From positions 30,970 through 94,969 of the forward strand of contig CBFHMK010000008.1 in the NCBI GenBank assembly GCA_965656965.1: a stretch of 64,000 bases of DNA, read 5' to 3'. A program made the position numbers and the translations under genes. The DNA is from an uncultured Porticoccaceae bacterium (GTDB lineage: Bacteria > Pseudomonadota > Gammaproteobacteria > Pseudomonadales > Porticoccaceae). The notes under the pieces were generated by a model, which saw only the letters and a list, made by a program, of their open reading frames with translations, made no database searches and had not been told where the DNA came from. Below are positions 6,764 through 50,867 of the stretch, piece by piece (positions within the stretch are counted from its first letter, which is position 1; each line of letters opens with the position of its first letter).

Positions 6764-6856
6764 GGTAAAGACAAAGTGCCAGTAAGGCGTCGTAACCCTT
6801 AATTCAGGTCTACAATTAATTGGAATGGACACAACAATACCGAAGGAAAGGTAACC

Positions 6857-7438
6857 ATGAACAGCAAACAGCAAATTATCAGCAGAAGCGCTCTGGGCGT
6901 CTTACTCTTACTCTGCGCCGCACTGGCCAGTATTACGCAATCGGCTCAGGCCGATGAGCCCTATCTTTTAAACCCTGGCGATCAGCTTGAAATATCAGTT
7001 TGGAATGAAGAAACCCTACAAAAAACCATCACGGTGTTGCCCGACGGTATGATTTCATTTCCCTTGGTGGGGCATCTTCACGCCGCTGGCAATAGCGCCG
7101 CTGTATTAGAGGCGGCTATTGCCGAAAAGCTAGATACCTTTATAGCCGACCCAGAGGTCAATGTCACAGTGACGAGTACCAGGGGTAATGTGAGTTATGT
7201 GGTAGGTAAGGTTTTGAAACCTGGGCCAATTGAAATGGTGCAAAAAACCAGCGTTATGCAGGCGTTGGCCATAGCTGGAGGTATCAATGAATTTGCCTCA
7301 GGCAATGCCATCAAGATTATCCGCAGCGCGGGAGAGCAGGAAGTTATCCTAAAGGTGCGTTACTCCGATCTAGAAAAAGGCAGTGATTTGTCTACTAATC
7401 ACAAACTCAAGGCCGGTGACGTACTAGTTATACCCTAA
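6857..7438 (+). CDS. Polysaccharide biosynthesis/export protein (short Wza/OPX-like, Poly_export plus SLBB)
   Basis: YLLNPGDQLEISVW, VLPDGMISFPLVG, VVGKVLKPG, LKAGDVLVIP; signal peptide. Confidence 0.9.
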   Translation: MNSKQQIISRSALGVLLLLCAALASITQSAQADEPYLLNPGDQLEISVWNEETLQKTITVLPDGMISFPLVGHLHAAGNSAAVLEAAIAEKLDTFIADPEVNVTVTSTRGNVSYVVGKVLKPGPIEMVQKTSVMQALAIAGGINEFASGNAIKIIRSAGEQEVILKVRYSDLEKGSDLSTNHKLKAGDVLVIP

Positions 7439-7453
7439 GCCAAGGAGGCCATT

Positions 7454-8593
7454 ATGAAAAAAACAGCCAACTATGCAGCAATACTAACCTCGTCCCTGCT
7501 TATTGCAGTGGCGTCCTACGCAGGAACCTGGGTGCCCGACTGGAGTCTGGACAGCGACGTCAGCTATGAGGATAACTTTTTTATGGATGAAACCACCCAG
7601 GACACTTGGCGCTATAGTATTAGCCCTGAATTGTCTCTGATTTATATGACTCCATCAGTGGAGTCGTCTCTAAATGCTGAAGTCGCCGTGCGCCGCTACT
7701 CTGATTTTGACGAATTCGATAGTCAGGACCCCTCTTTTAGTTGGGACAACAGTCTAATTAGAGAGCGCACCACCTGGACCTTTAATTTTGGCTACGACGA
7801 GTATTCCCAGAGGGACTTTGCTGAGCTGGACACTGGGCAGTTTAATTCCAACACCACTGTAGAAAAGATTTATATGGAGCCAGGAGTTGCCTACCAGTTA
7901 AGCGAAAAAGACAGTATCTCACTATCTCTGGGGCGCGTTGAACGGGACTATGATACCCAAGACTTCGCCGATAATGACAACGACTCTCTAGGCTTTGCCT
8001 GGGAACACCAGGTTAACCAGCGCTGGACTACAGTCCTAAATACCATGATATCTCGCTATCAGGCTGGTAAGCCTGGCATTGATAGGACGGAAACTGATTA
8101 TTCAAATATCACAGCCGGATTTATGTATCAGGCTTCAGAAGCTATGACTCTGGATATCAGTATTGGTTATTTTAATAGCGATCAACAACATAGATTGATG
8201 GTTGGACCTGCGATGATCATCACTGATCAGGAAAACTCCGGCGTACTGATTAGTCTAGGCTTGGTTGGCGATCATCAATTGGATGACTGGCGCCTCGAGT
8301 TTAACAGAGGGCTATACCCCTCGAGCCAGGGCGAAGTAGAAGAACGGGACTCGGTAAATATTTCCTACGAACACCAGCTAACTGAGCGGAGCACAACTGG
8401 TATACGTGCGGCCTATCATGACACCAAGTCAGAAACTAATGCTCGCCAGAGCACAGTGGTAACACCTTTCTACTATTACTATCTATCGCCCAGATTAAGG
8501 CTAGAAACATCCTATAGCTATCGCGACTTTGATCGACAACTGGGAACAGTCGAATCGAATAGAGTTGAGGCTGGATTGCGTTATAGCTTTTGA
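7454..8593 (+). CDS. Outer-membrane beta-barrel protein (EPS/PEP-CTERM system associated)
   Basis: Signal peptide, alternating aromatic strands, C-terminal ...AGLRYSF barrel signature; lies between the OPX and PCP genes. Confidence 0.8.
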   Translation: MKKTANYAAILTSSLLIAVASYAGTWVPDWSLDSDVSYEDNFFMDETTQDTWRYSISPELSLIYMTPSVESSLNAEVAVRRYSDFDEFDSQDPSFSWDNSLIRERTTWTFNFGYDEYSQRDFAELDTGQFNSNTTVEKIYMEPGVAYQLSEKDSISLSLGRVERDYDTQDFADNDNDSLGFAWEHQVNQRWTTVLNTMISRYQAGKPGIDRTETDYSNITAGFMYQASEAMTLDISIGYFNSDQQHRLMVGPAMIITDQENSGVLISLGLVGDHQLDDWRLEFNRGLYPSSQGEVEERDSVNISYEHQLTERSTTGIRAAYHDTKSETNARQSTVVTPFYYYYLSPRLRLETSYSYRDFDRQLGTVESNRVEAGLRYSF

Positions 8594-8635
8594 TAACCAG
8601 CATTTAGATAATAAATTAATCAAGAAGAGATTGGG

Positions 8636-23911: not shown

Positions 23912-23947
23912 TCCTGGGCCCAACAATAATTTGAAAAGGACTTCCAA

Positions 23948-24547
23948 ATGGATTTTGCAGAATTTGTAGAAGATTACTATCAGCGATATATTCAGGTTAT
24001 TAAAGACTTCGATAAGGCCACTCTCGAGCCTGTATTAGAGATTTTTTTAGCGACCGCTCGCAATAATGGCACACTCTGGGTCGCTGGCAATGGCGGAAGC
24101 GCCGCTATAGGAGATCACACGGTCTGCGACGTTACCAAAGGCACGCATAAACCCGGTCAGCCGAGTATTAAGTCCATTTCATTGTCATCCAATACCGCCA
24201 TGCTGACTGCACTGGGCAATGATATCTCCTATGAAGCGGTGTTTAGCGAGCAGCTAAAATATTATCTGGGCAAGAATGATGCTCTGCTGTTGGTTAGCTC
24301 TAGTGGAAATTCGCCCAATGTAGTTGCTGCCTGCGACTACGCCAATCAGATGGGCGTACCTACCATCGCCTTTGTGGGCTTCAAAGGGGGGAAATTAAAA
24401 GAGATGGCCAAGTATTCTGTATGGATACCGGTGGAAAACTACGGCATGACCGAGGACGCGCACCAGAGTCTAATGCATGTGACCACTCAATATATTATGG
24501 CGCATGCCAAGACCAGAGTAGGCACCGAGGCTGAGGCGCTTAATTAA
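23948..24547 (+). CDS. gmhA: Sedoheptulose-7-phosphate isomerase (SIS domain, GmhA-like)
   Basis: GNGGSAA, TALGNDISYEAVFSEQL, SSSGNSPNV, EDAH motifs. Confidence 0.88.
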   Translation: MDFAEFVEDYYQRYIQVIKDFDKATLEPVLEIFLATARNNGTLWVAGNGGSAAIGDHTVCDVTKGTHKPGQPSIKSISLSSNTAMLTALGNDISYEAVFSEQLKYYLGKNDALLLVSSSGNSPNVVAACDYANQMGVPTIAFVGFKGGKLKEMAKYSVWIPVENYGMTEDAHQSLMHVTTQYIMAHAKTRVGTEAEALN

Positions 24548-25602
24548 TGTCTCTGTCGCAACAGGTAGGTGCTGTGGTTATAGGTCGCAATGAGGGCGAG
24601 CGATTGAAGCGCTGTTTGTCCTCGCTGCAGACGCAGCATCAGGGGCCTATAGTGTATGTGGATTCTGGTTCCACCGATAGCAGTGTGGAATATGCTCAAT
24701 CCGTTGGTATTGATCTGGTTAATCTGGAGATGAGCAGGCCTTTTACCATGGCTCGGGCCAGAAATGCGGGGCTTTGGTACCTCCAAGAAAAATATCCCAA
24801 GACTGCATTTGTACAGTTTATTGATGGAGACTGCGAACTCAACGACCACTGGCTCTCTTCTGCCTATAATTTTTTACTTGCACATCAGAACATAGTTTGT
24901 GTCTGTGGCCATCGACGTGAACGTTTTCCTAACATCAGTCTTTATAACAATCTTATTGATATGGAATGGCAGCGCGAAGTAGGCGAAATTGACGCCTGTG
25001 GCGGCGATGCTATGTATCGCATAGATGCGCTGCAAAAAGTGAAAGCCTTTAACGAGATTATGATTGCTGGTGAAGAGGGCGAGCTCTGTTGGCGACTGCG
25101 TCTTAATGGCGGAGGCATAGTAAGACTAGACCAGCCCATGACCTTACATGACGCCAACATGCATTGCCTCTCACAATGGTGGATGCGATCGGTGAGATGT
25201 GGCCACGCCTACGCGCAGGGCTATGACTTACAGAGACGGAGTTCGAGGTATCAAAAACCAGCTTATAAACAGCATCAGATGTTAAGTAGTCTGTTTTATG
25301 GTGCAGTAGTGCCGGCTCTGCTGTTGGTATTTGCGGCAATATTGATAAGTCTTAGCCTACCCAGCATCTGGATTCTTTTTGTGGGTTGGGCCATGGTTTT
25401 TTTAGTCTTTTTCTATGCCCCTATTATTCATAAGTCAGCGGCCTCCAGACTGCCCCAGAAATATAGTGTAAAAAACCGTTATCTCTATGCATGTTTTGTT
25501 GCTCTGGGGAAATTCCCCGAGGCTCAGGGCGTTTTGAGATATTACAAAAACAAATTATTTGGCAAGACTGCCAGAATTATTGAATACAGACGAAATTTGT
25601 AG
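24547..25602 (+). CDS. Glycosyltransferase family 2
   Basis: VVIGRNEGERLKRCL, YVDSGSTD, ARARNAG, FIDGDC, GEEGELC. Confidence 0.9.
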   Translation: MSLSQQVGAVVIGRNEGERLKRCLSSLQTQHQGPIVYVDSGSTDSSVEYAQSVGIDLVNLEMSRPFTMARARNAGLWYLQEKYPKTAFVQFIDGDCELNDHWLSSAYNFLLAHQNIVCVCGHRRERFPNISLYNNLIDMEWQREVGEIDACGGDAMYRIDALQKVKAFNEIMIAGEEGELCWRLRLNGGGIVRLDQPMTLHDANMHCLSQWWMRSVRCGHAYAQGYDLQRRSSRYQKPAYKQHQMLSSLFYGAVVPALLLVFAAILISLSLPSIWILFVGWAMVFLVFFYAPIIHKSAASRLPQKYSVKNRYLYACFVALGKFPEAQGVLRYYKNKLFGKTARIIEYRRNL

Positions 25603-25625
25603 CTGTATTTAGCTAAAGGATTAGC

Positions 25626-26846
25626 ATGATTCATTATATAACCAGCAATGGTGTCGGTAATGCTTGGGTTGGCAACGAGTTAATGGCACTGTCAAAACAG
25701 AGTCTGGACTTTGCATTACATTCATTGCATCGACCTGCGACTAGCTATTTTAAATCTCAGACGGTAGCAGAGATCAATCAGCAGACCCACTTTATATATC
25801 CGTTACCGCTATCTCAGGTAATTTCTGAGGTCTGCAAAGCGCCATTTTGTTTTGGGCGACGTTTTTGGTTTGCATTGCTTAATGCTGTGTTTGGTCGCAA
25901 AGAATCTTTTACGGTGAGGCTTAAGTCTGTGTTGCACTTCTCAGTGGCCTGCGTATGGGCAAGATATCTAGCGACACAAAGGGTTTCCCACATCCATTCT
26001 CAGTGGATCAACTCCTGTGGCACTGTCGGCATGTATGCGGCCTGGCTGCTCGATAAACCCTTTAGTTTTACCGGCCATGCGGCAGATCTATTTCGCGAGC
26101 GCTGCGCTCTAAAAGATAAAATCATCAGAGCAAAATTTATTGTCTGTATCTCCAGTTTTCATAGAGACTTCTATATAGAGCAAGGGGCAGATCCAGCCCA
26201 ACTCATTGTTGCCTATTGCGGCATAGACACTAGCCTTTTTAAACCCAAAAAACCAACGCATAACGCGGGGCCTGTGCATATTGTTTCAGCCGCTCGGCTG
26301 GTAGAAAAAAAGGGTTTGATGTATTTAATTGATGCCTGTGAACAATTAAAAACTGTTCTGGACTTTCGCTGCACCATTGCCGGCGATGGGCCGTTGTTGT
26401 CCGAGTTGCAGCAGCGAATAGACGGCAGAGGTTTATCTGATCTAGTGACACTTACCGGCGAGCCCCTGCTGCAGGAGGATATCCCAGATTTTATGGCAGC
26501 CGGTGATATTTACTGTCTGCCCTGTGTCTGGGCAGAAGATGGCGATGTGGATGGTCTGCCTCAGATGCTAATGGAAGCAATGGCCTGTGCTGTACCCGTT
26601 ATTTCAACCCAGTTAGTAGGCATCCCGGATTTAGTTGAGGATGGCCAGACTGGATTATTGGTAGCACCCAAGGACTCTGCAGGCCTGGCCGAAGCAATAT
26701 CTAAGCTGGCCCAGGATAGCCATTTGCGTCAGCATCTGGCGGCCCAGGGTAGACAAAGAGTGATCGATACGTTTTCTATTGATAAGTCGCTGCAACCTTT
26801 AATTTATCAGTTTAAGCAACAGATTGATCAAGGATTGGCGCAATGA
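25626..26846 (+). CDS. Glycosyltransferase family 4 (WcaL-like)
   Basis: HIHSQW, FTGHAAD, AARLVEKKG, DGLPQMLMEAMA. Confidence 0.9.
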   Translation: MIHYITSNGVGNAWVGNELMALSKQSLDFALHSLHRPATSYFKSQTVAEINQQTHFIYPLPLSQVISEVCKAPFCFGRRFWFALLNAVFGRKESFTVRLKSVLHFSVACVWARYLATQRVSHIHSQWINSCGTVGMYAAWLLDKPFSFTGHAADLFRERCALKDKIIRAKFIVCISSFHRDFYIEQGADPAQLIVAYCGIDTSLFKPKKPTHNAGPVHIVSAARLVEKKGLMYLIDACEQLKTVLDFRCTIAGDGPLLSELQQRIDGRGLSDLVTLTGEPLLQEDIPDFMAAGDIYCLPCVWAEDGDVDGLPQMLMEAMACAVPVISTQLVGIPDLVEDGQTGLLVAPKDSAGLAEAISKLAQDSHLRQHLAAQGRQRVIDTFSIDKSLQPLIYQFKQQIDQGLAQ

Positions 26847-31345: not shown

Positions 31346-31365
31346 TCTAATGGAAGGATGGAACC

Positions 31366-32472
31366 GTGACTGGATTAACCCTAGCTGAACGCAACCTCTG
31401 GACCGTTTTGGGGTTGCCATTTGACCGAGTAAACAGGGAGGAGGCTGTTGCTCTGATTGAGCAATGTATTCGGACAGGGAGTCGCTGTTTTCTATCGACG
31501 CCAAACTTAAATTTTGTTGTACAGGCATACAGGGACAAGGCGTTCTATCGTTCGGTGCTCGAGAGCGATCTGGTGGTAGCAGATGGTATGCCGATTATAT
31601 GGGTGGCAAGGTTGCTAGGCATTCCTTTGCCAGAGCGAGTAGCCGGTTCATGTCTTTTTGAAAGCCTAGAACAGCAGAAGCCTGATAGGCCGATCCGAGT
31701 GTTCTTTTTTGGTGGTCAGGGTGATGCCGCAGAAAAGGCCGCTGCCAATCTTGCAGAGACCAGCCAGAGCATGGAGTGCTGCGGGTTTTTAAACCCCGGC
31801 CTGGGGACTGTAGATTCCATGAGTACTGATAAGATTATCCAGCAGATTAATAGGGCTCGGGCAGATTTTTTATTAGTGGCTCTTGGCGCCAAAAAAGGTC
31901 AGCACTGGATTCAGCATAATCGCTCTAGACTTGAAGCACCTGTAATCAGCCATCTAGGAGCAGTGATAAATTTTGTGGCTGGTGATGTTGAGCGTGCCCC
32001 TAAGTTATGGCAAAGATTGGGTGTTGAGTGGCTTTGGCGTGTTAAGCAAGAGCCTGGCCTGATGCGACGGTATATTTCAGATGGTCTGTGGTTTATCTAT
32101 TTATTAGTAGCTCGGGTATTTCCGTTGGCAATATATGACTCCATATTACAGCTGACAGCAGGTCCCCGACGGCCCCTCAAAATCAGCAGCAATCAGATTG
32201 ACCACTGTCTTGAACTGGCACTGGTTGGGTCGGCGACGGCGACAAATTGTCGACAGCTTAAGCTGGTCTGTGAAAAAGCGCTGAGTCAGCCATGTACTAT
32301 ACTCAGGCATGTGCAAATTGATTGCTCTGAGTTGGTTTATATCGATAGCGCGGCGGTGGCGGTACTTTTGATATTTGAAGCAACTCTGACACAAAGAGGG
32401 CAGAGCCTGACATTTCTACATATTAATGGACGTATTAAAAGGTTAATTGGGTTGCAGGCGTTGCATCGTTAG
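31366..32472 (+). CDS. WecB/TagA/CpsF family glycosyltransferase fused to a C-terminal STAS domain
   Basis: TPNLNF, ADGMPI, ERVAGS, VALGAKK, RAP..WQRLGVEWLWR; C-terminal IDCSELVYIDSAAVAVLL STAS motif. Confidence 0.85.
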   Translation: MTGLTLAERNLWTVLGLPFDRVNREEAVALIEQCIRTGSRCFLSTPNLNFVVQAYRDKAFYRSVLESDLVVADGMPIIWVARLLGIPLPERVAGSCLFESLEQQKPDRPIRVFFFGGQGDAAEKAAANLAETSQSMECCGFLNPGLGTVDSMSTDKIIQQINRARADFLLVALGAKKGQHWIQHNRSRLEAPVISHLGAVINFVAGDVERAPKLWQRLGVEWLWRVKQEPGLMRRYISDGLWFIYLLVARVFPLAIYDSILQLTAGPRRPLKISSNQIDHCLELALVGSATATNCRQLKLVCEKALSQPCTILRHVQIDCSELVYIDSAAVAVLLIFEATLTQRGQSLTFLHINGRIKRLIGLQALHR

Positions 32473-36769: not shown

Positions 36770-36918
36770 AAAGCACCCTGCTTATTTGCTATGCTTACTC
36801 GTATATGCCAAGCTCCGTCTAGTGATTGTTAGAGTTTTCGGCGGCATTTTGCAGCAGTTACGGGCTAGCATAGCTTGACTGACCCCTTCAGGCCGGAAGT
36901 GAACCAAGGATTGAAATT

Positions 36919-37596
36919 ATGCACGTTCTTATTGTTGATGATCATGCTTTCGTCTGTGTTGGTCTCAAGGCGACATTAAGCGAAGAGTTTGAAAATATTC
37001 AGGTTACCACCACCGACCATGGTGACGATGCACTGACCATTTTGGCAAAAAATGAAATAGATCTAGCCATCGTGGATTTATTTATGCCTGGAGGGGCCGG
37101 TGGCTTTAACTTTATTGAAATGCTTTGCGAAAGCTATCCTAAACTCCCATTAATTGTATTATCGGCGTCAGAAAATCCTGCACATATACGTAAGTGTCTC
37201 GATTTTGGTGTGGCGGGGTTCGTAACCAAATCAGCACCAAAAGATGCCTTGTTTGAGGCCATATCTAAGGCATTGTCAGGTGAGCGATATGTCCCTGAAT
37301 CATTAATAGAATCCATGCCAGAAGTAGCGCGAGTAATCGATGAGGTCGATTCCGGTGCGGACGTTGATATTATTTCAGGTCTGGTCACTGATCGGCAGAT
37401 GGATATATTGCGCAGGATTACTCAGGGGCGCTCCAATAAGCAAATTGCCCGTGAGCTGGATCTCTCTGAAAACACAGTTAAGGTCCATGTTAGTGCAATG
37501 TTAAGAGCATTGGGGCTTAGCAATAGAACTCAAGCGGGAATTCTCGGGCAGAAACTGGGCCTATCAGAACCCTCAGATACTCATAAATACCCCTGA
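36919..37596 (+). CDS. NarL/LuxR-family response regulator
   Basis: LIVDDH, AIVDLFMP phospho-Asp, LSAS, VTKS, LuxR HTH GRSNKQIARELDLSENTVKVHVS. Confidence 0.95.
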   Translation: MHVLIVDDHAFVCVGLKATLSEEFENIQVTTTDHGDDALTILAKNEIDLAIVDLFMPGGAGGFNFIEMLCESYPKLPLIVLSASENPAHIRKCLDFGVAGFVTKSAPKDALFEAISKALSGERYVPESLIESMPEVARVIDEVDSGADVDIISGLVTDRQMDILRRITQGRSNKQIARELDLSENTVKVHVSAMLRALGLSNRTQAGILGQKLGLSEPSDTHKYP

Positions 37597-37627
37597 GCTA
37601 GAATCTCAGAAAATAAAGAGACCTTAA

Positions 37628-39676
37628 ATGATTAAAAATAGAAATAATATCTGCATTTTTCTGATGCTAATTCCTGCACTATCGGCATCCAGCCTCGCAG
37701 ATATTGTGGTCACAGAGGATGATCTGCTTGCAGATATTCATCTGGTCTCTAGTGTGACCCATATGAATCAGCCTCAAAGCCAGACTCCTGCGGCAGTGAC
37801 CATTATTGATCGAAGAACTATCGATGCCTCTGCAGCTGTTGATGTGTTGGATTTATTTCGTCTAGTGCCAGGATTTCGGACTTACTTCGTTAATGCTAAC
37901 GCACCTAGCTTGAGCTACCATTCTGTGGGTGAAAGTTACCCTCGTCGATTAGAGGTAAAAATCGATGGTCGCTCTGTTTATGAGTCTATTTTTTCATCCG
38001 TAGAGTGGAACACCCTGGGGGTGGAGCTCGAGGATATTGATTATATCGAAATAGTGAGGGGAGGTAATGCCCCCGCGGACGGGAGCAACGCATTTCTAGC
38101 TTCAATTAATATAGTGACTCGGTCACCATTGCTGGACAGTGGCTGGAATCTGCGCGCCCAATTTGGCAGCGATAATATTCGCAATAGGTCGATAACATAT
38201 TCAGGCAAGCTGGGGGAGATCGACCATCGCACTACGTTGCGGCATAGGTCCAATGATGGGTTCAGAGACTTTTCTGGTGAGTATAGAGGTCAGCAGAGAG
38301 ATATTAGTCTTGACGATGGCACAGAGACCATAACCCTGGGTTTTAAGGGACTCTGGACACCCAGAGCATCGGACAGTGTTGAACTGCAGTTTGGTTTCAA
38401 TGACAGTGAGGTGGGTATCGGGGAGAGGGAATATCAGCTGCAAGAGACCGATTACCAATACCAGCACCTTGCCTGGTCCCATAGTGGCAATGGCAGCAAC
38501 CAATATGAGTTGATTGTTTATCATAATAAATTTGATATTAACCAGGCTCAGGACCCGCTAACATTCTATCAAGCATTAACTTTTTTTCCTGAGGGGCCAA
38601 CCAAACTGGCACTATCGCAGCTGCCAGATAAGTTAATTATTGAACCTGAAAGTATTATAGTCTCCGAGCGATGGGACGCGGAATTTAGAGCAAATTTTGA
38701 GGCCACAGACTCTATCCGTGGTGTCTATGGTGTAGCTGCTAGGAAAGACCGGGTTTCGAGCAACACACTTTTTGATATGAGTGGCTCTGCCAGTCAAGAG
38801 TCCTATCGGAGTTACTTAAACCTGGAATGGAGAGCTCTGAATAATATTAGCTTTAATGCTGGATTTATTTCTGAATACCGAAATAAAAGTAGAAACGTCA
38901 ATTCCTACCGAATCGCCAACAACTACCAGGTCTCGGAGGATCACAGTATAAGACTGGCCTATAATCGAGGTTACCGAGCTCCCACGATGTTGGAAAGCCA
39001 GCAGAACACTACTGTTCGTTACAATGAGAACTTAATTCTTGATGCGTCAATACAGTCTGATGCGAATGTTGAACCTGAGTTATTGTCTAGCTCTGAGCTA
39101 GGCTACTCTGGGTTTTTCCTAAACCAAACTCTAAATGTTGATGTGCGTCTATACAGAGAGCGGATGTCTGATCTAATCGGTGAGCGTCGAGAAAGTTATC
39201 CAGACTTCGACGGTCAGCTAAATATTCGCGACAATATAGGTAGCGCTGAAGTAACGGGGATCGAGTGGCAGGTTCAGTACAGGCCCGACAATCACTGGCT
39301 GGTGCACGCTAATTACAGTTATACGGATTTGCAGCAGGACTACCTTTACCGATCTAGTCCAGAGATCGAAATTCGCGATTTTAGTAGGCTTAATCCCCAT
39401 CACCTGGGCGGGCTGTTGATCAGCTATCTAACAGAAGACAACCTTAGCTTTAGCACTATGGTTAATCACCAAAGCAGGATTCACCATTTTTCAGGTGTTG
39501 ATGATGAGGGATATACCCGTGTTGATTTTAAGCTGGCCAAAAAGTGGCGGGCGAAGCAGCGAGATGCAGAATTATCTTTGACCGTACAAAACATTGGCTC
39601 TGACTACAGAGAGTTCTATTTTTTCAACCAGTTTAAAACCAGATATGTTCTGGGTTTGCAAATTGGGTTTCCTTAG
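37628..39676 (+). CDS. TonB-dependent receptor
   Basis: Signal peptide, plug motifs PAAVTII, DLFRLVPG, KIDGRSVY, IEIVRGG..GSNAF..INIVT; C-terminal LGLQIGFP. Confidence 0.92.
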   Translation: MIKNRNNICIFLMLIPALSASSLADIVVTEDDLLADIHLVSSVTHMNQPQSQTPAAVTIIDRRTIDASAAVDVLDLFRLVPGFRTYFVNANAPSLSYHSVGESYPRRLEVKIDGRSVYESIFSSVEWNTLGVELEDIDYIEIVRGGNAPADGSNAFLASINIVTRSPLLDSGWNLRAQFGSDNIRNRSITYSGKLGEIDHRTTLRHRSNDGFRDFSGEYRGQQRDISLDDGTETITLGFKGLWTPRASDSVELQFGFNDSEVGIGEREYQLQETDYQYQHLAWSHSGNGSNQYELIVYHNKFDINQAQDPLTFYQALTFFPEGPTKLALSQLPDKLIIEPESIIVSERWDAEFRANFEATDSIRGVYGVAARKDRVSSNTLFDMSGSASQESYRSYLNLEWRALNNISFNAGFISEYRNKSRNVNSYRIANNYQVSEDHSIRLAYNRGYRAPTMLESQQNTTVRYNENLILDASIQSDANVEPELLSSSELGYSGFFLNQTLNVDVRLYRERMSDLIGERRESYPDFDGQLNIRDNIGSAEVTGIEWQVQYRPDNHWLVHANYSYTDLQQDYLYRSSPEIEIRDFSRLNPHHLGGLLISYLTEDNLSFSTMVNHQSRIHHFSGVDDEGYTRVDFKLAKKWRAKQRDAELSLTVQNIGSDYREFYFFNQFKTRYVLGLQIGFP

Positions 39677-39723
39677 AAACTGAGATGCGAGTCCCCCGTT
39701 AATAGCAAAATATTTAACTTATT

Positions 39724-40710
39724 ATGACTATATCGGCCATGCAATCAGAATCCTATAGCTCGATTAAATATTGGGCCCTGTTCCTTTGCGTGACTTTTTT
39801 GTTCTATCTGGCACCAGCGATTGCTCTAGAGACTCAAGCCTCCCAGAGTATACTCTTTATTATGAGCAAGGACGCTCCTGCATATTCGCAGGTGGTAGAT
39901 TTTGTTGAGTCAAATTTAAGTGCTACTAGGCGGTCCTATTCTTTTCGTAGGCTGCTAAAAAACGACAGCTCCGAGCTTGCCGAGCGTCTGAAAGATGCCG
40001 ATATTATTGTGACTGTGGGTGCGGGAGCTACCGAAACTGCGATGAAGGAAAAGCCCGTACAGCCGCTTATAGCGGCGTTGATTACCGATAGTGCATTTTC
40101 GGCATTGGCTAATAATTACTATGGTTCTACACCTCAAGCGCTAGCTGCTAGAGTTTCTGTTATCTGTTTGGACCAGCCGGTCCAGCGCAGTATTAAACTG
40201 GCCAAGCTTCTTGTTCCTTCAGCCTCGAGTACCGGTTTGATGCTAGGTCCAGCATCACAGGGTAGGGGGGAAGAGTTTTCTCAGTATGCCTCTGAGGTTG
40301 GTCTAACAGCCAATCTAGTAAATATTGAGTCCAGTGATAACCCTATTTTGGCTATTGAGCCGGTGCTAGCGAAAAGCGATGTGTTTATCCCAGTACCAGA
40401 CAGCAGGCTTATTAATATTGCTTCTGCGAAGTGGATATTGCAGTTGAGTTATAGATATCGAATTCCAGTTATTGCCTATTCAAAGACTTATCTCAATGCA
40501 GGTGCCCTGGCAGCAATTTATTCATCACCAGAAAACGTAGGCCGACAGACCTCAGAGTTAATACTAAATCAGTCGACGGACATCACTAGCAAAGGTGGGG
40601 CTCATATGCCCGCTTATTTCTCAGTTCAGTTTAATACAACCGTTGCCGGGCATTTAAGAATCCCGTTAGAGGAAACGCAGTTTTATATAGATCGGCTGCT
40701 GGATAATTAA
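39724..40710 (+). CDS. Periplasmic ABC-type substrate-binding protein (no permease or ATPase nearby)
   Basis: Signal peptide, IIVTVGAGA, DQPVQR, IPVIAYSKTYLNAGALAAIYSSPE (ABC_sub_bind-like). Confidence 0.8.
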   Translation: MTISAMQSESYSSIKYWALFLCVTFLFYLAPAIALETQASQSILFIMSKDAPAYSQVVDFVESNLSATRRSYSFRRLLKNDSSELAERLKDADIIVTVGAGATETAMKEKPVQPLIAALITDSAFSALANNYYGSTPQALAARVSVICLDQPVQRSIKLAKLLVPSASSTGLMLGPASQGRGEEFSQYASEVGLTANLVNIESSDNPILAIEPVLAKSDVFIPVPDSRLINIASAKWILQLSYRYRIPVIAYSKTYLNAGALAAIYSSPENVGRQTSELILNQSTDITSKGGAHMPAYFSVQFNTTVAGHLRIPLEETQFYIDRLLDN

Positions 40711-40711
40711 G

Positions 40712-42961
40712 ATGCTAAAAAACCGCGACTACAACAGTATTCATACGAGACTTCTTATTACAGGCTTAATCCCCCTAGCCCTGCTAAGTCTAGTCTTGGG
40801 CTGGTATATGATCTCTACGCAGAGCTCTGAACTATTATCCAATATGCATGATACGGGCAGAGTCGCGACTAACCAGATGGCCTCCAACGCAGAGTTTGCT
40901 CTGTACTCCGGTAATGAGGAAATGCTGGAAACATTGGGGTACTCAATTCTGGATATTCCCTCGGTGTCGGGGATCCTTTTTTATAATACTGTTGATGATC
41001 GCACCGTAAGGATTGGCGATATCGACTTTGCGACTCAGCGAATGCCAGACAACTTTGATCTGGGCCCTCCATTTTTTAGAGACAACCAGTGGTATTTTTA
41101 TTCAAAGATCACGCTAAACCGAGGTCTCACCGAAGACTATGATGAATTTGGTCAGGCTGAGTCAGAAGTCATAGGTTGGGTTCTGGTGTCCCTGACTAAT
41201 GAAATCCTGATACAAAAACAGCGGCAGGCTATATTTGGTGCCCTGATCGTAATCAGTCTTGGTTTGTTGGTTGCTGCCTGGATATCCATGCGTATAGGCC
41301 GAAGTATTTCCAAGCCATTAGAAAATTTAACTCAGGTTGTTGAGGTGATGGAGACCGGGGAGTTAGATTCTCTGGCTAGTGAAGAGGGGCCGCTGGAATT
41401 ACGCAAGCTAGCTTACGACATTAACCAATTAGCCACTAGCGTTCGTCAATCTAACGTCCGTATGCAAAGTGAAATCGCTCGCGCTACCGCGCAGTTACAG
41501 ATTACCCTAATCGAACTTGAAGAGGCTATGGAGGCACAGGATCAGTTTTTGGCTCGAATGAGCCATGAGCTTCGTACCCCGCTAACGGCGGTTATTGGGT
41601 TCTCAAGATTGTTGTTCACCGAGCTAGATAGCGGCAAGAGAAATGAGCATTTGCGAGTCATTGAACGCTCATCAACCATGCTACTGACCATGATTGACGA
41701 TATTCTCGAGTTCTCAAAAGCTCATGATGGGGGTTTTACTCTAGAGCAAATCAACTTCGATATACGTCAGTGGATGAGTGACCTGATGGAAATTCACCGC
41801 CAGCGCGCCGAGGAGAAAGATTTACAGTTTACCTACGAAATTTCCTCAGATGTTCCAGAAAAACTCTGTGGTGATCCGGTGCGGTTATCTCAGGTGGTTG
41901 CTAACTTAATCAACAACGCAATCAAGTTTACCGAGAAGGGTTTTGTTCACCTGCAGATAGAAAGTCTGTCCAATAAAGATGGCATTATTAATCTGCAGTG
42001 CTCCGTCTCTGATTCCGGCAAGGGTATTGCCCAAGACAAAATTGCCGGTTTATTTGAACCCTTTTCACAGGAAGACACCTCGATCAATCGGCGCTATGGC
42101 GGCACTGGGTTGGGCCTCTCGATCTGTAAGCGACTGGCGGAGACAATGGGCGGAGACGTGACTATTGAGAGTAGGGAGAGCCATGGCTCTACCATCAGTT
42201 TTACCTGCTGCCTATCTGAGGTTGACCCAGCGTATTCAATGGCAATGGCTGATCAGATCGCTGTTGAGCCGGAACCACTGCTATCGGGATTAATCATATT
42301 AATTGCCGAAGACAACCCTTTTAATCAGAAGCTGATTTTGAAGCTATTAGAGGCCTATGGAGCCACCTGTATGCTCGCCAATAATGGTCAGGAGGCTATA
42401 GAATTGGCAGGCGAATTACATGTTGACGCGGTGCTTATGGATATTCATATGCCAGTGGTTGATGGCGTGACCGCCTGTGAGACTATTATGCAGCAGTCAG
42501 GTGAGAGCCCGCCAATTATCGGGCTCACGGCAGATATTACCCAGGCTGAGCATCAGAGAATGATGTCAGCTGGGGCTATCAGTATTCAATCCAAGCCGCT
42601 TGAGGAAGTAAATCTAGTGAATGCTATTCTCAGTGCTCTAAGTGACCAGCGAGAACTCTCCGAGCAGTCCTCCGAAGGTCTGTTATCTTCAGTTATTCCT
42701 GCACAGGAGCTCAAGGCGGCACTAATTGATAATCTACATTTGCTGGAGCAACAGCTAACTGCTAATGAGAAAGCTAGCCTCCGACAAATCATTCATGATC
42801 TCATGGGCCTTTGCGGGCTATATGGCATGTTTGAGTTGCGTGAGCTAGTGCTGACGTTTAGAGCCACTTACAGCTCTTTGACTGTGGCTGAAAACCTCAA
42901 AAAGGTGCAGATTATCCGTCAACATATTGAAGATTCTTTTAGGGGAAAATCCTCCAACTAA
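40712..42961 (+). CDS. Hybrid sensor histidine kinase, BarA/GacS-like (periplasmic sensor, HAMP, HisKA, HATPase, REC, Hpt)
   Basis: H-box ARMSHELRTPL, N-box NLINNAIKFT, DSGKGI, GGTGLGL, REC LIAEDN...LMDIHMP...KP, C-terminal HDLMG Hpt-like His. N-terminal TM and sensor layout resembles GacS/BarA. Confidence 0.9.
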   Translation: MLKNRDYNSIHTRLLITGLIPLALLSLVLGWYMISTQSSELLSNMHDTGRVATNQMASNAEFALYSGNEEMLETLGYSILDIPSVSGILFYNTVDDRTVRIGDIDFATQRMPDNFDLGPPFFRDNQWYFYSKITLNRGLTEDYDEFGQAESEVIGWVLVSLTNEILIQKQRQAIFGALIVISLGLLVAAWISMRIGRSISKPLENLTQVVEVMETGELDSLASEEGPLELRKLAYDINQLATSVRQSNVRMQSEIARATAQLQITLIELEEAMEAQDQFLARMSHELRTPLTAVIGFSRLLFTELDSGKRNEHLRVIERSSTMLLTMIDDILEFSKAHDGGFTLEQINFDIRQWMSDLMEIHRQRAEEKDLQFTYEISSDVPEKLCGDPVRLSQVVANLINNAIKFTEKGFVHLQIESLSNKDGIINLQCSVSDSGKGIAQDKIAGLFEPFSQEDTSINRRYGGTGLGLSICKRLAETMGGDVTIESRESHGSTISFTCCLSEVDPAYSMAMADQIAVEPEPLLSGLIILIAEDNPFNQKLILKLLEAYGATCMLANNGQEAIELAGELHVDAVLMDIHMPVVDGVTACETIMQQSGESPPIIGLTADITQAEHQRMMSAGAISIQSKPLEEVNLVNAILSALSDQRELSEQSSEGLLSSVIPAQELKAALIDNLHLLEQQLTANEKASLRQIIHDLMGLCGLYGMFELRELVLTFRATYSSLTVAENLKKVQIIRQHIEDSFRGKSSN

Positions 42962-43035
42962 TACTTTTGTATTAACTCGTCAGTGTAATTTATTTATCCC
43001 GAAAAATTCCGTATCTTACAACCTAGCATTGACTC

Positions 43036-43343
43036 CTTGGCATGAAGCTTTGACAGGGACTTTACTGGTAAAAATACACAGACCTACACTGCTGTAAGAA
43101 AGACAACACTGATAAATAGGAAGTTTAAGAGCTAAGTTGACAGGGAGTTGACTTCAAAGGATAGACGCTCAATCAGTTGTTATATTTCGTTTGCTACCAG
43201 TTGTGCGGTATAGACGACTTGGATGTCGTGCGCCATGGAAGGCGCGGGTCAATCTTTAGATTGCTAACACGTTTCGCGTTGTTTTGGGTTCCCCACTTTA
43301 TAACCTTATAGATATCCTAAGCCCAAGGGCTTAGGTTTTTTTT
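43036..43343 (+). ncRNA. Candidate CsrB/RsmY/RsmZ-type CsrA-titrating small RNA (5' end uncertain, 43036-43110)
   Basis: Four hairpins with GGA in the loop (43113-43127, 43134-43154, 43214-43229, 43230-43245), two more GGA motifs (43057, 43159), no ORF in the six-frame track, and a strong intrinsic terminator at the end. Confidence 0.7.
43316..43343 (+). terminator. Rho-independent terminator
   Basis: CCTAAGCC-CAAG-GGCTTAGG-TTTTTTTT: perfect 8-bp stem followed by 8 T. Confidence 0.93.
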
Positions 43344-43472
43344 GCCTGACTATTTCATATTATGACTAGCCTACTTGCTACTGCCCAGAGACCTGTTGAT
43401 AAGAATTACTTTTACTCTCAGGGCTTTAGGCCATAGACTGGAGCCATTCAAGCCTCAAGTCTAAAAGACCCT

Positions 43473-45959
43473 ATGTCAAAAAAAACCAAACAGATAGATC
43501 CTTTCGCCAGTAGAGAAGCCGCTAACTATCAGCGGCCTATCCCAAGTCGTGAGTTTGTGCTCGACTATCTCAGCGAAAGTGTTGGCCCTGTAACCCACGA
43601 AGAGATCTGCGCAGCCCTTCAGTTAACTGATGAAGTTCAGGTCGAAGCAATGCGTCGTCGTCTCAGGGCGATGGAGCGAGATGGCCAGGTGGCCCGCAAT
43701 CGTCGCGGTGGTTATGGCACCTTGGATAAACTAAATTTGGTAAAGGGAAGAGTGATAGGCCATCCCGAAGGCTATGGGTTTGTCTCGCCAGTACAGGGTG
43801 ATGGGCAGGATATTTATCTCTCTAGTGCGCAGATGAGGCGTGTTTTTGATGGCGATATTGTGCTTGTCAGAATTGCCGGATGGGATCGCCGTGGGCGACC
43901 TGAGGGTAGTTTGGTGGATGTGGTTGAGCGCAAAACCACACAGCTAGTCGGGCGCTTTTTCTGTGAAAGCGGCATCAATTTTGTACGCCCTGATAATCCG
44001 CGTATTAGCCAAGATATCCTGATACCTGCAGATAAGCGCTTAAATGCTACCTCGGGGCAGATAGTGGTAGTGGAAATATCCGAGCCACCATCCCGTAATA
44101 GTCTGCCCGTCGGTTATATTTCTGAGGTGCTGGGCGAGCATCTGGATCCCGGCCTAGAAATTGATATGTCTATCCGCAACTACGGCATTCCCCATCAATG
44201 GAATGATCAGGTGTTGGAGGAAACAGCTGCAATCCCGGATCAGGTTGAGGACAGCGGTCTGCGAGTGGACTTACGCAATACACCGCTGATTACCATTGAT
44301 GGCGAAGATGCTCGAGACTTTGATGATGCGGTTTACTGCCAGCCCAAACCCCGAGGAGGCTGGTCTCTAATTGTTGCTATCGCGGATGTATCTCATTATG
44401 TCAGCGCGGGCTCAGCGCTGGATACCGAGGCCTTCCATCGGGGCAACTCCGTATATTTCCCCAATCACGTAGTACCCATGCTGCCAGAAAAGCTTTCCAA
44501 TGGCCTGTGCTCGTTAAATCCCGCTGAAGATCGCCTCTGTATGGTTTGTGAGATGCAGATCAGTGCCGAGGGTGATGTAAGCCGCTACCAATTTTATGAA
44601 GGCATAATGCACTCTCACGCCAGAACCACCTACACTCAGGTGGCGCAAATTATTGCAGATAGGGTTCAGGAGAATCGCTCTGGTGTGCGCAAACAGTTCT
44701 CCTCCATTTTGCCCCAGGTTGATGCGCTGCATGATTTATACAAAGTACTGCACAGGCGCAGAACCAAACGGGGAGCCATTGACTTTGATAGCCAAGAAAC
44801 CCGAATTCTCTTCGATAGTCAGCGCAAAATTAGTCAGATTATTCCCGTTGATCGTACCGAGGCCCATCGTCTAATTGAAGAGTGTATGCTCTGCGCTAAT
44901 GTCTGTGCTGCTGAGTTTTTAGAAAAAGTTAAAATCCCCGCTTTGTTTCGTGTCCATGAAGGCCCCAGCGAAGAGAGGCTGTCCTCTGTTCGTGACTTTC
45001 TGGGTGAGCTTGGTATTGGCCTGGGGGGTGGAGATGACCCTCAACCCGAAGACTATCAGCGTGTCCTGCGGGCTGTAAAAGGCCGTGATGATGCTGCGAT
45101 TATTCAGTCAGTCATGCTGCGTTCGATGAGCCAGGCTATGTATCAGCCGGAGAATATGGGACATTTCGGACTAGCATTTGATGCCTATAGCCACTTTACA
45201 TCACCGATACGTCGCTATGCAGATCTGCTTGTTCACAGAGCCATTCGAAGTGTTATAAGGAGTAAGAAAAAGACCTCTGCAGTGCAGCGGGTGCCTGGGG
45301 CGACGCTGCTCGAACTACAAACTATTTATCCCTATGACCTGGGTCGCCTAGACGAGACTGGCGAGCATCTCTCGGTCACCGAGCGTCGTGCCGACGAGGC
45401 GACTAGGGACGTGGTCAACTGGCTCAAGTGCGAATATCTCATGGATAGAGTGGGCGAACAGTATTCTGGCGTCGTCAGTGCTGTGACTGGTTTTGGTTTG
45501 TTTGTCATGCTTGATGATCTCTATGTCGAGGGGTTAATACATGTTACTGGGCTACCCAAAGATTACTATTATCATGAAGCCTCCCACCACCGTATGGTGG
45601 GCGAACGTACCGGGCGAGTGTTTCGACTGGGTCAGAAGCTGCGGGTCAAAGTAGTTCGTGTTAATTTAGAAGAGCGTAAAATAGACTTTGAACTGCTGGA
45701 TGGCACCAACTCAGAAACTCCCGGCAAAGCATCTAAAGGGCGCGGCAAGAGTGGTGGTGGCGAGAGGCCTCGAGTGTCTTCGAGAGCAGCCGAAATGGCA
45801 TCAGAGCATGAGAAAAAACGCAGTACTCGTGGCAAGGGAGCCAATAAGAAAGCTGCTGCCGGCAAGAAAAAGCCGATTTCTAAAAGGCGCAAAAACAAAC
45901 CCGCGTCAGGGGCTGCTGGAAAATCCTCTGTGGGTAAAAGAAAAAAGACTCGCAGTTAA
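43473..45959 (+). CDS. rnr: Ribonuclease R
   Basis: GHPEGYGF cold-shock domain, ITIDGEDARDFDDAV, HFTSPIRRYADL, S1 domain, basic C-terminal tail. Confidence 0.98.
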   Translation: MSKKTKQIDPFASREAANYQRPIPSREFVLDYLSESVGPVTHEEICAALQLTDEVQVEAMRRRLRAMERDGQVARNRRGGYGTLDKLNLVKGRVIGHPEGYGFVSPVQGDGQDIYLSSAQMRRVFDGDIVLVRIAGWDRRGRPEGSLVDVVERKTTQLVGRFFCESGINFVRPDNPRISQDILIPADKRLNATSGQIVVVEISEPPSRNSLPVGYISEVLGEHLDPGLEIDMSIRNYGIPHQWNDQVLEETAAIPDQVEDSGLRVDLRNTPLITIDGEDARDFDDAVYCQPKPRGGWSLIVAIADVSHYVSAGSALDTEAFHRGNSVYFPNHVVPMLPEKLSNGLCSLNPAEDRLCMVCEMQISAEGDVSRYQFYEGIMHSHARTTYTQVAQIIADRVQENRSGVRKQFSSILPQVDALHDLYKVLHRRRTKRGAIDFDSQETRILFDSQRKISQIIPVDRTEAHRLIEECMLCANVCAAEFLEKVKIPALFRVHEGPSEERLSSVRDFLGELGIGLGGGDDPQPEDYQRVLRAVKGRDDAAIIQSVMLRSMSQAMYQPENMGHFGLAFDAYSHFTSPIRRYADLLVHRAIRSVIRSKKKTSAVQRVPGATLLELQTIYPYDLGRLDETGEHLSVTERRADEATRDVVNWLKCEYLMDRVGEQYSGVVSAVTGFGLFVMLDDLYVEGLIHVTGLPKDYYYHEASHHRMVGERTGRVFRLGQKLRVKVVRVNLEERKIDFELLDGTNSETPGKASKGRGKSGGGERPRVSSRAAEMASEHEKKRSTRGKGANKKAAAGKKKPISKRRKNKPASGAAGKSSVGKRKKTRS

Positions 45960-48773: not shown

Positions 48774-48905
48774 CTAGCTGTCTGTGTCAATTGTCTGGGT
48801 AGTCCCCTGATCGTCGGGAAGATATAAATCGCCTGTGTTGCCGCATCCGGTTAGACCGCCAAGCAGCAGCGAACAAGCTATAAACAGGTTAATTTGGCGA
48901 AACAT
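48774..48905 (-). CDS. lptM: Small outer-membrane lipoprotein LptM/YifL (LppL)
   Basis: LTGCGNTGDLYLP lipobox motif; conserved position upstream of lysA. Start at ATG 48905. Confidence 0.88.
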   Translation of the reverse strand: MFRQINLFIACSLLLGGLTGCGNTGDLYLPDDQGTTQTIDTDS

Positions 48906-48996
48906 GAGGGACCACCGCAAAAAATGTAAGTATAGCTGGACTGGTAGATCACAACCAAACAATTATACTGCGCACCTATAATTTGGGGAAAAGCGA

Positions 48997-49329
48997 ATGA
49001 ATGAAGCGGAATTTAACCAAACAGTCGATGATTTGATGTTTTCTATTGAAGAGGCTATCGACGACAGTGGCGCAGATCTGGACTATGAAAACAGCGCCGG
49101 TATGCTGACCATCACCTGTGAGGCCAATGGCTCGCAAATCATCCTGTCGCGGCAGCCCGCAATGTCTGAAATATGGCTGGCCGCGCGCTCTGGAGGTTTT
49201 CATTTTAAATTGACCTCTGAGCAGGGTGCCGAACGCTGGCGCAATACAGTGACTGGTGAACTCCTGTCAGAGATGCTCAACGGCGCCTGTCTGGCTCAGT
49301 CTGGAGAAACCCTTAACTTCGGCTTTTAA
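48997..49329 (+). CDS. cyaY: Iron donor protein CyaY (frataxin)
   Basis: [30 protein letters not shown]. Confidence 0.96.
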
Positions 49330-50743
49330 GCCGCTGCAATGCTCTGCCAGCAGCAGCGCGCACCTGCTCTGGCGCTGTTCCGCCTAAATGGTTGCGGGCG
49401 GCTACAGACCCCTCAAGAGTAAGAATATCGAATACATCCTGATCAATCTGGTCGGAGAATTGTTGCAGCTCCTCAAGGGTCATTTCTGAGAGATCCCTGT
49501 TCTGTTCAATCCCATAGGCAACGGACTTGCCAACAATTTCATGGGAGTCACGGAAAGCAATACCTTTGCCGACCAAATAATCCGCTAAATCTGTGGCCGT
49601 AGAGAAACCTCGGCGTGCTGCTTCGTACATGGACTGTCTATTGGCCTGAATCGCAGGAACCATATCGCCGAAAGCTCGAAGACAGTCCATCACGGTATCC
49701 ACCGCGTCAAACAACGGTTCTTTATCTTCTTGATTATCTTTGTTGTAGGCTAGCGGTTGAGATTTCATCAGCGTCAGTAAGGCAATTAGATGACCATTGA
49801 CGCGGCCGGTCTTGCCGCGCACCAGCTCTGGCACATCAGGGTTTTTCTTCTGCGGCATAATAGAGGAGCCAGTGCAAAAGCGATCGGGTAGATTAACAAA
49901 CTGGAACTGTGCGGAGGTCCAGAGAACCAGCTCTTCGGACATGCGCGACATATGGGTCATCAGCATGCTGGAAAAGGCGCAAAATTCTATGGCGAAATCG
50001 CGGTCGCTGACAGAGTCTAGAGAGTTTTCTGTGGGCTTATCGAATCTCAGCTCGGCTGCTGTAAATTCGCGATTAATTGGATAGGTAGTTCCGGCCAGCG
50101 CCGCAGCGCCCAAGGGGCTTTGATTGAGTCGTTTTCGACAGTCCAGCAGACGACCATAGTCACGCTCTAGCATTTCATTCCAAGCCAGTAAATGATGGCC
50201 AAAGGTGACTGGCTGTGCAGTCTGGAGATGGGTAAAGCCGGGCATAATGCTATCTGCCTCAGCTACTGCCAGCTCCACCATGCCCTGTTGCAAATGAGTT
50301 AATAATGGCTGGATGGCGTCTATTTTGTCGCGCAACCAGAGACGAATATCAGTGGCGACCTGATCGTTTCTCGAGCGCCCGGTATGAAGTTTTTTGCCGA
50401 CAATACCAATACGATCTGTGAGTGCCGCCTCGATATTCATATGGACATCTTCTAGCTCCACAGACCAGATAAAGTCGCCGGCTTTAATCTGTTGGCCTAT
50501 CTCCTGCAAACCACTGGTAATCAAATCTAGCTCCTTTGAATCCAGCACACCGGCTGCGGCCAGCATTTTTGCATGAGCGAGAGAGCCTTGAATATCTTGA
50601 TGAGCTAATCTTTGATCGAAGTTAACCGACGCGGTAAAGCGAGCCACAAAGGCATCTACTGGCTCATTAAAGCGCCCACCCCAAGATTGATTGGTCTCCT
50701 CGACTTCAGGCGTTTTCGAACTATTTTTGTCAGAATTACTCAT
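49313..50743 (-). CDS. argH: Argininosuccinate lyase
   Basis: [41 protein letters not shown]. Confidence 0.99.
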
Positions 50744-50867
50744 CGACGGGCTTACCCAGTTGTTTAAAGCGTGTCGAATTATAGCTAATCAGAGCCCTCA
50801 GGGGTAAAACTTCATGTTTAAAATAGGTATGATGGCCGAGCTCGAGTAAAACCCAAGGAGGGTAAGT

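Follow-up and report, generated by a model that had tools for sequence, protein, structure and literature searches.

The closest described counterparts of the hairpins reported here are those bound by RsmA at pslA (Psl polysaccharide of Pseudomonas aeruginosa) and by RsmE at hcnA (a secondary-metabolite gene of P. fluorescens/protegens), in which a short, unstable hairpin that overlaps with the Shine-Dalgarno (SD) motif holds a GGA in its loop. The core of these sites is ANGGAN, and binding of the protein blocks the ribosome (PMC7652899). RsmE contacts the ANGGA core, and the consensus obtained by SELEX, RUACARGGAUGU, places the GGA in a small loop with mostly ≤4 stem pairs (PMC7652899). In Escherichia coli, CsrA represses polysaccharide synthesis post-transcriptionally at pgaABCD (poly-GlcNAc) and glgC with one GGA site over the SD, as proposed here, and hairpin-loop sites act as high-affinity anchors in its targets (PMC7652899). 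Here, we compare with these systems a 64,000-nucleotide stretch of an uncultured Porticoccaceae bacterium (GCA_965656965.1, contig CBFHMK010000008.1, positions 30,970 to 94,969 of the forward strand; hereafter the window), whose organism belongs to the same broad GTDB order as the Pseudomonas hosts of RsmA and RsmE. The window encodes a PEP-CTERM/exosortase exopolysaccharide (EPS) cluster, and we found conserved hairpins that hold the GGA of the SD in their loops at six neighboring genes of this cluster and at the more distant algR, as well as a conserved structured element between a BarA-like kinase gene and rnr that is a candidate sponge small RNA (sRNA).

In contrast to pslA and hcnA, the hairpins occur at six successive cistrons and not in one long leader, most sites have a single GGA, and the protein was not found in the 644 kb searched. 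The E. coli targets likewise differ, with a single leader holding six sites in pgaA and four in glgC; moreover, no Rho-dependent component is suggested here, and what is targeted is not the synthase but a nucleotide-sugar branch. Sequence comparison suggests that a Csr/Rsm-type translational switch probably governs part of exopolysaccharide synthesis in this organism. Such control of polysaccharides is already known elsewhere; new here are the candidate sponge sRNA and the probable circuit.

Hairpins at the ribosome-binding sites of six EPS genes and algR

Scoring perfect Watson-Crick stems around a 3-8 nt loop containing the GGA, we found stems of at least 4 bp in 35 of the 62 contexts (56%) from six adjacent families (gmhA, GT4 glycosyltransferase, HddA-like kinase, galE, a second epimerase, and a histidine phosphatase; hereafter the sub-block), with at least 5 bp in 22. 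The corresponding counts are 8/60 and 3/60 for the 23 other EPS families, and 5/74 (7%) and 0/74 for 52 non-EPS families with algR left out, neither rate being distinguishable from the 8.5% observed for any GGA in the window. With one genome per deep clade (the window, L004, and L008) the sub-block count is 11/18 (binomial p = 3e-8), and the mean Boltzmann probability (P) of finding the GGA within a hairpin loop amounts to 0.38 for the sub-block and 0.79 at algR vs. 0.18 in other EPS genes and 0.07 elsewhere (Mann-Whitney p = 4.5e-10 for the sub-block vs. the rest), p-values that are optimistic because the sub-block boundary was set after the data had been seen. Over 12 loci, stems of at least 5 bp number 0-4 per locus vs. 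about 0.2 in shuffles, which is about tenfold in nearly every locus. The hairpin signal is confined to the genes from gmhA to the phosphatase and to algR and does not cover the whole region of 6.8-50.9 kb.

For these comparisons, a scan with the GT4 protein yielded 12 syntenic Porticoccaceae loci (L001-L011 and L019) and seven partial-cassette loci from Rhodobacterales and Methylibium. Start codons of the window, curated for 55 genes and matching the gene calls on public contigs, were projected onto the ortholog loci; 12-18 related Porticoccaceae/SAR92 loci were compared, and only distinct upstream sequences were counted. The control sets were the first half of the EPS cluster with the ribosomal-gene flank in three relatives (L025-L027), the algR-hem housekeeping region in five relatives (L024, L028-L031), and 10 kb beyond the window (L020). 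A metagenome scan with AlgR gave one locus, L024, which is too near the window for covariation; the other algR orthologs were obtained by protein search and from contigs.

The conserved feature is structure, not sequence, as the stem sequences vary among genes and species and the hairpin itself is kept, with compensatory changes. Among otherwise unrelated arms, UAACA...UGUUA and GCUAA...UUAGC each occur at two genes. The GGA stands at a constant distance from the start codon (-8 to -12), and an SD-position GGA is present in 62 of 65 sub-block contexts vs. about 50% elsewhere; outside the sub-block, only about one gene in two has a GGA at 20 nt or less from its start, and many housekeeping genes have a weak SD or none. 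In 62/62 sub-block contexts, A occupies position -2 of the GGA, vs. 31%-35% in other genes, and the base at -1 is variable (A 73%, G 19%, U 8%), also among the phosphatase orthologs. Recognition of ANGGA accounts for this combination better than pairing with the anti-SD sequence, which would not preserve -2 more than -1. Furthermore, an AGGA tetraloop closed by an A-U pair needs melting for anti-SD pairing, so that these stems are not devices presenting the SD to the ribosome. The number of GGA motifs per leader differs between families (gmhA 2-4, galE 1-3, GT4 1-3, WecG 0-5), and some of those at gmhA and galE, the genes that follow longer spacers, and in some GT4 leaders lie in a second hairpin.

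Taken alone, the window shows a GGA-loop pattern that is marginal and near chance. Of the 1370 GGAs on its two strands, 28.8% are flanked by a stem of at least 3 bp, 8.5% of at least 4 bp, 2.5% of at least 5 bp, and 0.44% of at least 6 bp. A GGA at -20 to -5 occurs in 32 genes of the curated set, and stems of at least 3 bp surround it in 9 of 15 genes in the EPS block and 4 of 17 other genes. When the flanks were permuted with the GGA and start codon fixed, the EPS block had 9 such stems vs. 5.1 expected (p = 0.049, with block and parameters picked after looking) and the span named by an earlier note on this DNA had 12 vs. 7.0 (p = 0.036); for the whole window, the numbers are 13 vs. 10.7 (p = 0.26). 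Folding gives P ≥ 0.5 at six genes vs. 2.3 expected from shuffles.

The earlier note had read eight hairpins between the OPX (Poly_export) gene and algR as a putative CsrA/RsmA regulon and cautioned that 3-bp stems around GGA arise by chance. All eight stem/loop/stem strings are present at the coordinates it gave, directly before start codons. As structures, those of OPX, GT4, the phosphatase, and algR fold in context (P = 0.55-1.0, energies of -2.4 to -4.1 kcal/mol); those of gmhA, galE, and a LuxR-type regulator have positive energies and P ≤ 0.04 in this genome, and that of a barrel protein does not form in context either. A regulon spanning the whole OPX-algR block is rejected, as rates do not rise above background in the housekeeping genes or in the EPS cluster's first half, and what survives of it are the genes from gmhA to the phosphatase and algR. 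Four of the six sub-block genes had already been named before the comparison, and the eight families named from the window have stems of at least 4 bp in 29 of 51 distinct ortholog contexts of other genomes vs. about 8.5% expected. Stems that are equal or better had been left out (GHMP kinase, GMC oxidoreductase, TPR lipoprotein, and cyaY), and kdsA, said to lack a stem, has 4 bp around its SD GGA (taag/GGAATCAG/ctta, 62446-62456), a stem that folding leaves unpopulated (P = 0.01) and that is in line with the rate expected by chance. Thus, 3-bp stems around GGA judged by eye in one genome are at chance level, and the comparison alone sorted sites from noise. Chance accounts for the barrel stem and probably for the 3-bp stems of this genome, not for the conserved set.

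The best-supported site is the phosphatase hairpin CAACAA/AGGA/UUGUUG (30039-30054; this and all following sites are on the + strand), 2 nt before the ATG at 30057, with -2.9 kcal/mol at 37 °C, -5.6 kcal/mol at 15 °C, and P = 0.96. In nine genomes, 90.7% of cells are paired and two pairs are changed on both sides, a result reached by 5 of 500 shuffles, with 18%-45% in slid controls; the ortholog forms include caacaa/AGGA/ttgttg, agac/GAGGGAAT/gtct, taacaa/TGGA/ttgtta, and ttaaca/ATGGAA/tgttaa. The GT4 hairpin GCUAA/AGGA/UUAGC (25612-25625) abuts the ATG at 25626 (-2.4 kcal/mol, P = 0.55), and a 4-5 bp stem is retained in 8 of 12 distinct ortholog contexts. The site of gmhA, which encodes a SIS isomerase, is degenerate in this genome (GAA/AAGGAC/UUC, 23933-23944; +1.6 kcal/mol, P = 0.04), and its orthologs have 4-7 bp stems at the same position and 2-4 GGA per leader, for example tttcaaa/AGGAA/tttgaaa in L002, aatc/AGGGA/gatt in L004, and taca/AAAAAGGA/tgta in L007.

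Similarly, the site of the HddA-like GHMP kinase, CAA/GGA/UUG (CAAGGATTG, 26829-26837), is weak here, and 6 of 11 relatives have gctaa/AGGAA/ttagc, with at least 5 bp in 5 of 11 distinct GGA contexts. The galE leader contains three GGA motifs (27855-27881) before the likely start GTG at 27885; the SD-proximal ACA/AGGAG/UGU resembles the SELEX core and does not fold on its own (+1.6 kcal/mol). In relatives, the galE SD has stems of 4-5 bp (gttca/AGGAGAA/tgaac, tatc/AAGGAGA/gata), and a second GGA hairpin lies upstream, e.g. tttcaa/GGA/ttgaaa in L004. The second epimerase has 2 bp only here (GACAAGGAAGU, 28885-28895) and 5-6 bp stems in seven relatives, with at least 5 bp in 6 of 9 distinct GGA contexts, among them ataaca/AGGACC/tgttat, whose 3' arm reaches the AUG, and taaca/GGGATT/tgtta.

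The only non-EPS family with a recurrent hairpin is algR, a LytTR response regulator gene, where ACCC/AAGGA/GGGU (50851-50863; -4.1 kcal/mol, P = 1.0) has its 3' arm within the strong SD AAGGAGG. Stems of at least 4 bp are found in 5 of 6 algR contexts, and the forms comprise aacc/ATTGGAG/ggtt (L028, L029), aattcc/ATTGGAG/ggaatt (L031, with an A-U to U-A flip), and ccc/AAGGA/ggg (L030); these pairs were read by hand, since MAFFT placed the algR hairpins one base off. In this genome, L030, and L031, algR (50868-51590 in the window) stands alone after a divergent argH, and L028 (8940-9998) and L029 (8934-9998) have a FimS/AlgZ-type His_kinase gene directly 5' of it, as in Pseudomonas. The receiver domain of AlgR has a weak Pfam score in this genome (32 bits).

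The remaining sites of the earlier list fare less well. The OPX hairpin UACC/GAAGGAAA/GGUA (6838-6853; -3.1 kcal/mol, P = 0.73) is a weak candidate that is retained in SAR92 H231 (L025, tacc/ACAGGAAC/ggta) and not in L026 or L027. The CAA/GGA/UUG of the NarL/LuxR-type response regulator (36905-36913; +2.9 kcal/mol, P = 0.01) has a second conserved GGA 13 nt upstream, and the only two orthologs available have tcaa/GGA/ttga (L002) and 2 bp only (L003). The barrel-protein site GCC/AAGGA/GGC (7439-7449), with -2.5 kcal/mol in isolation and P = 0.03 in context, is not conserved in L025-L027, and its stem, which flanks a strong SD, is most likely due to chance.

By NCBIfam, the six genes together with their coupled neighbors lie near GmhA, HddA (heptose-7-phosphate kinase), a heptose-type epimerase, and HddC, with every score under its equivalog cut-off. 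This suggests a GDP-heptose-like nucleotide-sugar branch with a GT4 transferase. In GT2d and a nucleotidyltransferase, the two genes within the sub-block that have no hairpin, the start falls at the stop codon of the gene before or within it, and both are presumably translationally coupled. A gmhA/GT4/HddA-like kinase/galE/epimerase/nucleotidyltransferase cassette (window 23948-31345) of similar order is also found on contigs of Rhodobacterales (Tateyamaria, Octadecabacter, Roseicyclus) and Methylibium (L012-L018) with 50%-69% protein identity. Hairpins at the ribosome-binding sites are not present in these seven GC-rich loci, suggesting a horizontally shared sugar cassette.

A structured RNA element between the kinase gene and rnr

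A candidate Csr/Rsm-type sponge sRNA (43050-43345, + strand; the 5' end is approximate), ending in an intrinsic terminator (43316-43345, +) identified by a terminator scan of the window, lies in the 512-nt spacer that separates the kinase gene from rnr. Six GGA lie between 43057 and 43239, and RNAalifold together with direct pair counts indicates GGA-loop hairpins at 43114-43126, 43134-43154, 43214-43229, and 43230-43245 and unpaired GGA motifs at 43052-43060 and 43156-43164 (all +). The element is conserved in L024 and L028-L031, where AlgR identity is 42%-72%. In the six sequences, the four hairpins are 97% paired with five pairs changed on both sides, which none of 500 shuffles reaches, and slid registers give 28%-50%. 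The loop flanks vary and the GGA stays, as in A[U/A/C]GGA[A/C/U/G] within GCGCC/.../GGCGC, with GCACC/GGUGC in two genomes. Downstream, the relatives each have a hairpin and T-run of their own, of differing sequence, as read by eye from the alignment. The element is also present at the RNA level, as metatranscriptome contigs cover 43073-43292, with a depth of 89 vs. 10.5 on the kinase gene in run X27; these contigs are unstranded and come from libraries that may contain DNA. In L029 (~1040-1250), an internal duplication of the CAGGGAG hairpin segment brings the number of GGA motifs to 13 in 641 nt, similar to the repeat expansion of Csr/Rsm sponge RNAs.

The element resembles CsrB, CsrC, RsmX, RsmY, and RsmZ in being non-coding, in its terminator, in having several looped or unpaired GGA, covarying stems, and variable flanks, and in its BarA/GacS-like neighbor. 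In contrast to these sRNAs, no Rfam family matches it, its GGA number only about 5-6, no GacA/UvrY box was recognized, and the neighboring regulator is NarL/ErdR-like. If confirmed as a sponge, it would add a new family to this group. A scan for clusters of at least three GGA hairpins was too noisy to reveal any further sRNAs.

Directly upstream of the candidate lies the gene of a hybrid histidine kinase of 749 aa (40712-42961, +) with HAMP, HisKA, HATPase, and REC domains, in which no Hpt domain was detected. In other Gammaproteobacteria, BarA is the sensor driving CsrB/Rsm sRNA synthesis. The best NCBIfam match of the kinase, from residue 9 onward, is BarA (GacS family) with 423 bits vs. a cut-off of 890, and LetS scores 286 bits. 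The order kinase-sRNA-rnr is retained in four relatives (L028-L031). The nearby response regulator is NarL/ErdR-like and not a GacA equivalog (82 bits with the UvrY/GacA model vs. a cut-off of 280).

The upstream edge of the spacer is a strongly conserved block (42962-42989, TACTTTTGTATTAACTCGTCAGTGTAAT) that may be a regulator binding site and in which no GacA box was recognized by eye. A TTGACA at 43050 was considered as an sRNA promoter element and rejected, as it is not conserved in L028 or L029. At 43410-43440 (+), a conserved TTTTACTC...CATAGACTG includes a promoter-like pair read by eye (TTTACT-17 nt-TAGACT), and since this pair lies 3' of the sRNA terminator, rnr probably has its own promoter.

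Probable Csr/Rsm-type control and alternative readings

On balance, we take the hairpins of the six genes, with OPX perhaps as a seventh, and of algR to be CsrA/RsmA-family sites that the RNA from the kinase-rnr spacer would relieve. The surviving hairpins, with a GGA in a 4-7 nt loop, a 4-6 bp stem, overlap with the SD, and an ANGGA core, have the architecture of CsrA/RsmE sites; the attribution to CsrA/RsmA in the earlier note is supported for this narrower set, the barrel stem being due to chance and OPX and the LuxR-type regulator weak or undecided. The GGA is unpaired in a loop overlapping the SD at the phosphatase, GT4, OPX, and algR in this genome, and across relatives in all six sub-block families and algR. 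In addition, the sequence ACA(A)-NGGA-(U)UGU is found at the phosphatase, epimerase, and galE sites, and several stems have the form ACA...UGU like the SELEX consensus.

We infer that a CsrA-family protein is encoded in this genome and binds these sites. A CsrA/RsmA dimer on an ANGGA hairpin would block the 30S subunit and repress the respective cistron, and such repression would limit production of AlgR and of a GDP-heptose-like sugar that goes into the PEP-CTERM/exosortase exopolysaccharide. The sRNA from between the BarA-like kinase gene and rnr, with four or five GGA loops, would titrate the protein, and its transcription may plausibly be under the adjacent two-component system. A further-reaching picture is offered tentatively, in which a self-contained Csr/Rsm module lies beside the PEP-CTERM cluster, composed of the BarA-like kinase, a sponge sRNA of an undescribed family, and CsrA gating each independently translated cistron of the GDP-heptose-like branch and algR via single ANGGA hairpins. 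If true, this would be a cistron-by-cistron control of one nucleotide-sugar pathway, unusual for CsrA, and a natural test of CsrA action within operons. It could also set when these abundant coastal bacteria decorate or make exopolymer. The SAR92/Porticoccaceae are coastal bacterioplankton in which genetic work is difficult, and their exopolysaccharides matter for how particles form and carbon is exported; EPS synthesis in this clade would gain its first regulatory handle in a switch made up of seven or eight hairpins, one sRNA, and one kinase.

Several points weigh against a CsrA/RsmA switch. No csrA/rsmA was found by tblastn with E. coli CsrA and P. aeruginosa RsmA in the window and 31 loci (644 kb in total, which is little against a genome of ~2.2 Mb or more), and the sole ground for csrA in this lineage is the general statement that CsrA is common in Gammaproteobacteria (PMC13443453). 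A protein search with P. aeruginosa RsmA gave only P. aeruginosa variants among the 120 matches listed, and we found no link between CsrA and SAR92 or Porticoccaceae in the literature. CsrA sites at nearly every cistron of an operon are an unusual layout, the phosphatase, kinase, and second epimerase mostly have a single GGA (many well-studied targets use two), and only two of the six sub-block sites have at least 4 bp in this particular genome. AAGGA is also a good SD, which ties the motif evidence partly to ribosome binding, and the sub-block was delimited after the fact. On the side of the sRNA, Rfam has no gathering-score matches in the window, and at E-values up to 10 only three unrelated weak ones on 42900-43500. 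One sRNA loop is UNGGA instead of ANGGA, one GGA is GGU in L028, a consensus scan found no sRNA promoter on the + strand, and the RNA-level signal comes from unstranded contigs of libraries that possibly contain DNA.

The main rival is tuning independent of any protein, in which weak stems flanking the SD set or insulate initiation at each cistron, or confer temperature dependence in a cold-water bacterium, with the structured RNA being unrelated. The weakness of the stems at 37 °C (-2.4 to -4.1 kcal/mol), with about double the stability at 15 °C, the position of the sites before internal cistrons with short spacers and almost always a strong SD, and the single GGA of several sites would all suit such tuning. 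Weak hairpins at the ribosome-binding site whose stability about doubles from 37 to 15 °C also recall RNA thermometers such as ROSE and fourU. However, classical thermometers pair the SD, whereas here the GGA is looped in all conserved hairpins and the flanks are paired, with only the algR 3' arm using the GG of GGAGG. Tuning also leaves unexplained the invariant -2 A beside a variable -1 and the fact that the GGA is always the looped SD core, and it gives no account of the restriction to one pathway and algR or of an adjacent conserved RNA with the same kind of loop. We therefore regard it as unlikely, if still to be taken seriously.

A different recognizer is more doubtful still, be it an endoribonuclease or RNA-binding protein that processes or stabilizes the polycistronic mRNA, or a transcription factor on DNA palindromes. 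The intercistronic position would suit processing or stabilizer sites, and the arms shared by pairs of genes (UAACA...UGUUA, GCUAA...UUAGC) speak for it too. However, the arms are otherwise unrelated among genes, contrary to a DNA operator, the constant GGA-start distance indicates translation initiation, and the loop motif is the known CsrA motif. Finally, chance and composition without function, with GGA as the SD core in A/T-rich spacers and frequent short palindromes, is very improbable overall and is refuted for the sub-block and algR, where 4-7 bp stems recur at the same position in many genomes with differing sequences and compensatory changes, even if the background rate, the marginal in-window p-values, the four unfolded stems of the eight listed, and look-alikes such as those of the barrel protein, kdsA, and cyaY speak for it elsewhere.

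Genes and GGA clusters of the window

Pfam and NCBIfam annotation identifies the window as a gammaproteobacterial segment, for which SAR92/Porticoccaceae are the closest genomes; sequence identical to it was found in marine metagenome assemblies only. The genes ffh-rpsP-rimM-trmD-rplS (753-4387) precede the PEP-CTERM/exosortase EPS cluster (5351-36695), which comprises Bac_transf, Poly_export, a Wzz-like protein, glycosyltransferases, a flippase, exosortase EpsH, and a TPR lipoprotein. The NarL/LuxR-type response regulator, a TonB receptor, a binding protein, and the BarA-like hybrid kinase follow (36919-42961). The genes 3' of the kinase are rnr, dapF, lysA, cyaY, argH, the LytTR regulator in the algR position before hemCDXY, tilS, pyrG, and kdsA.

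Raw GGA density failed as a discriminator of sites, as the densest spot, at the start of a WecG/TagA-STAS fusion gene, is mostly coding. This cluster has 10 GGA in 150 nt (31332-31481, +), five of them at -45 to +12 of the WecG start (AATGGAAGGATGGAACC-GTG). In relatives, the WecG count is 0-3, and L001 has a 7-bp hairpin there (ataatag/AAGGAAA/ctattat).

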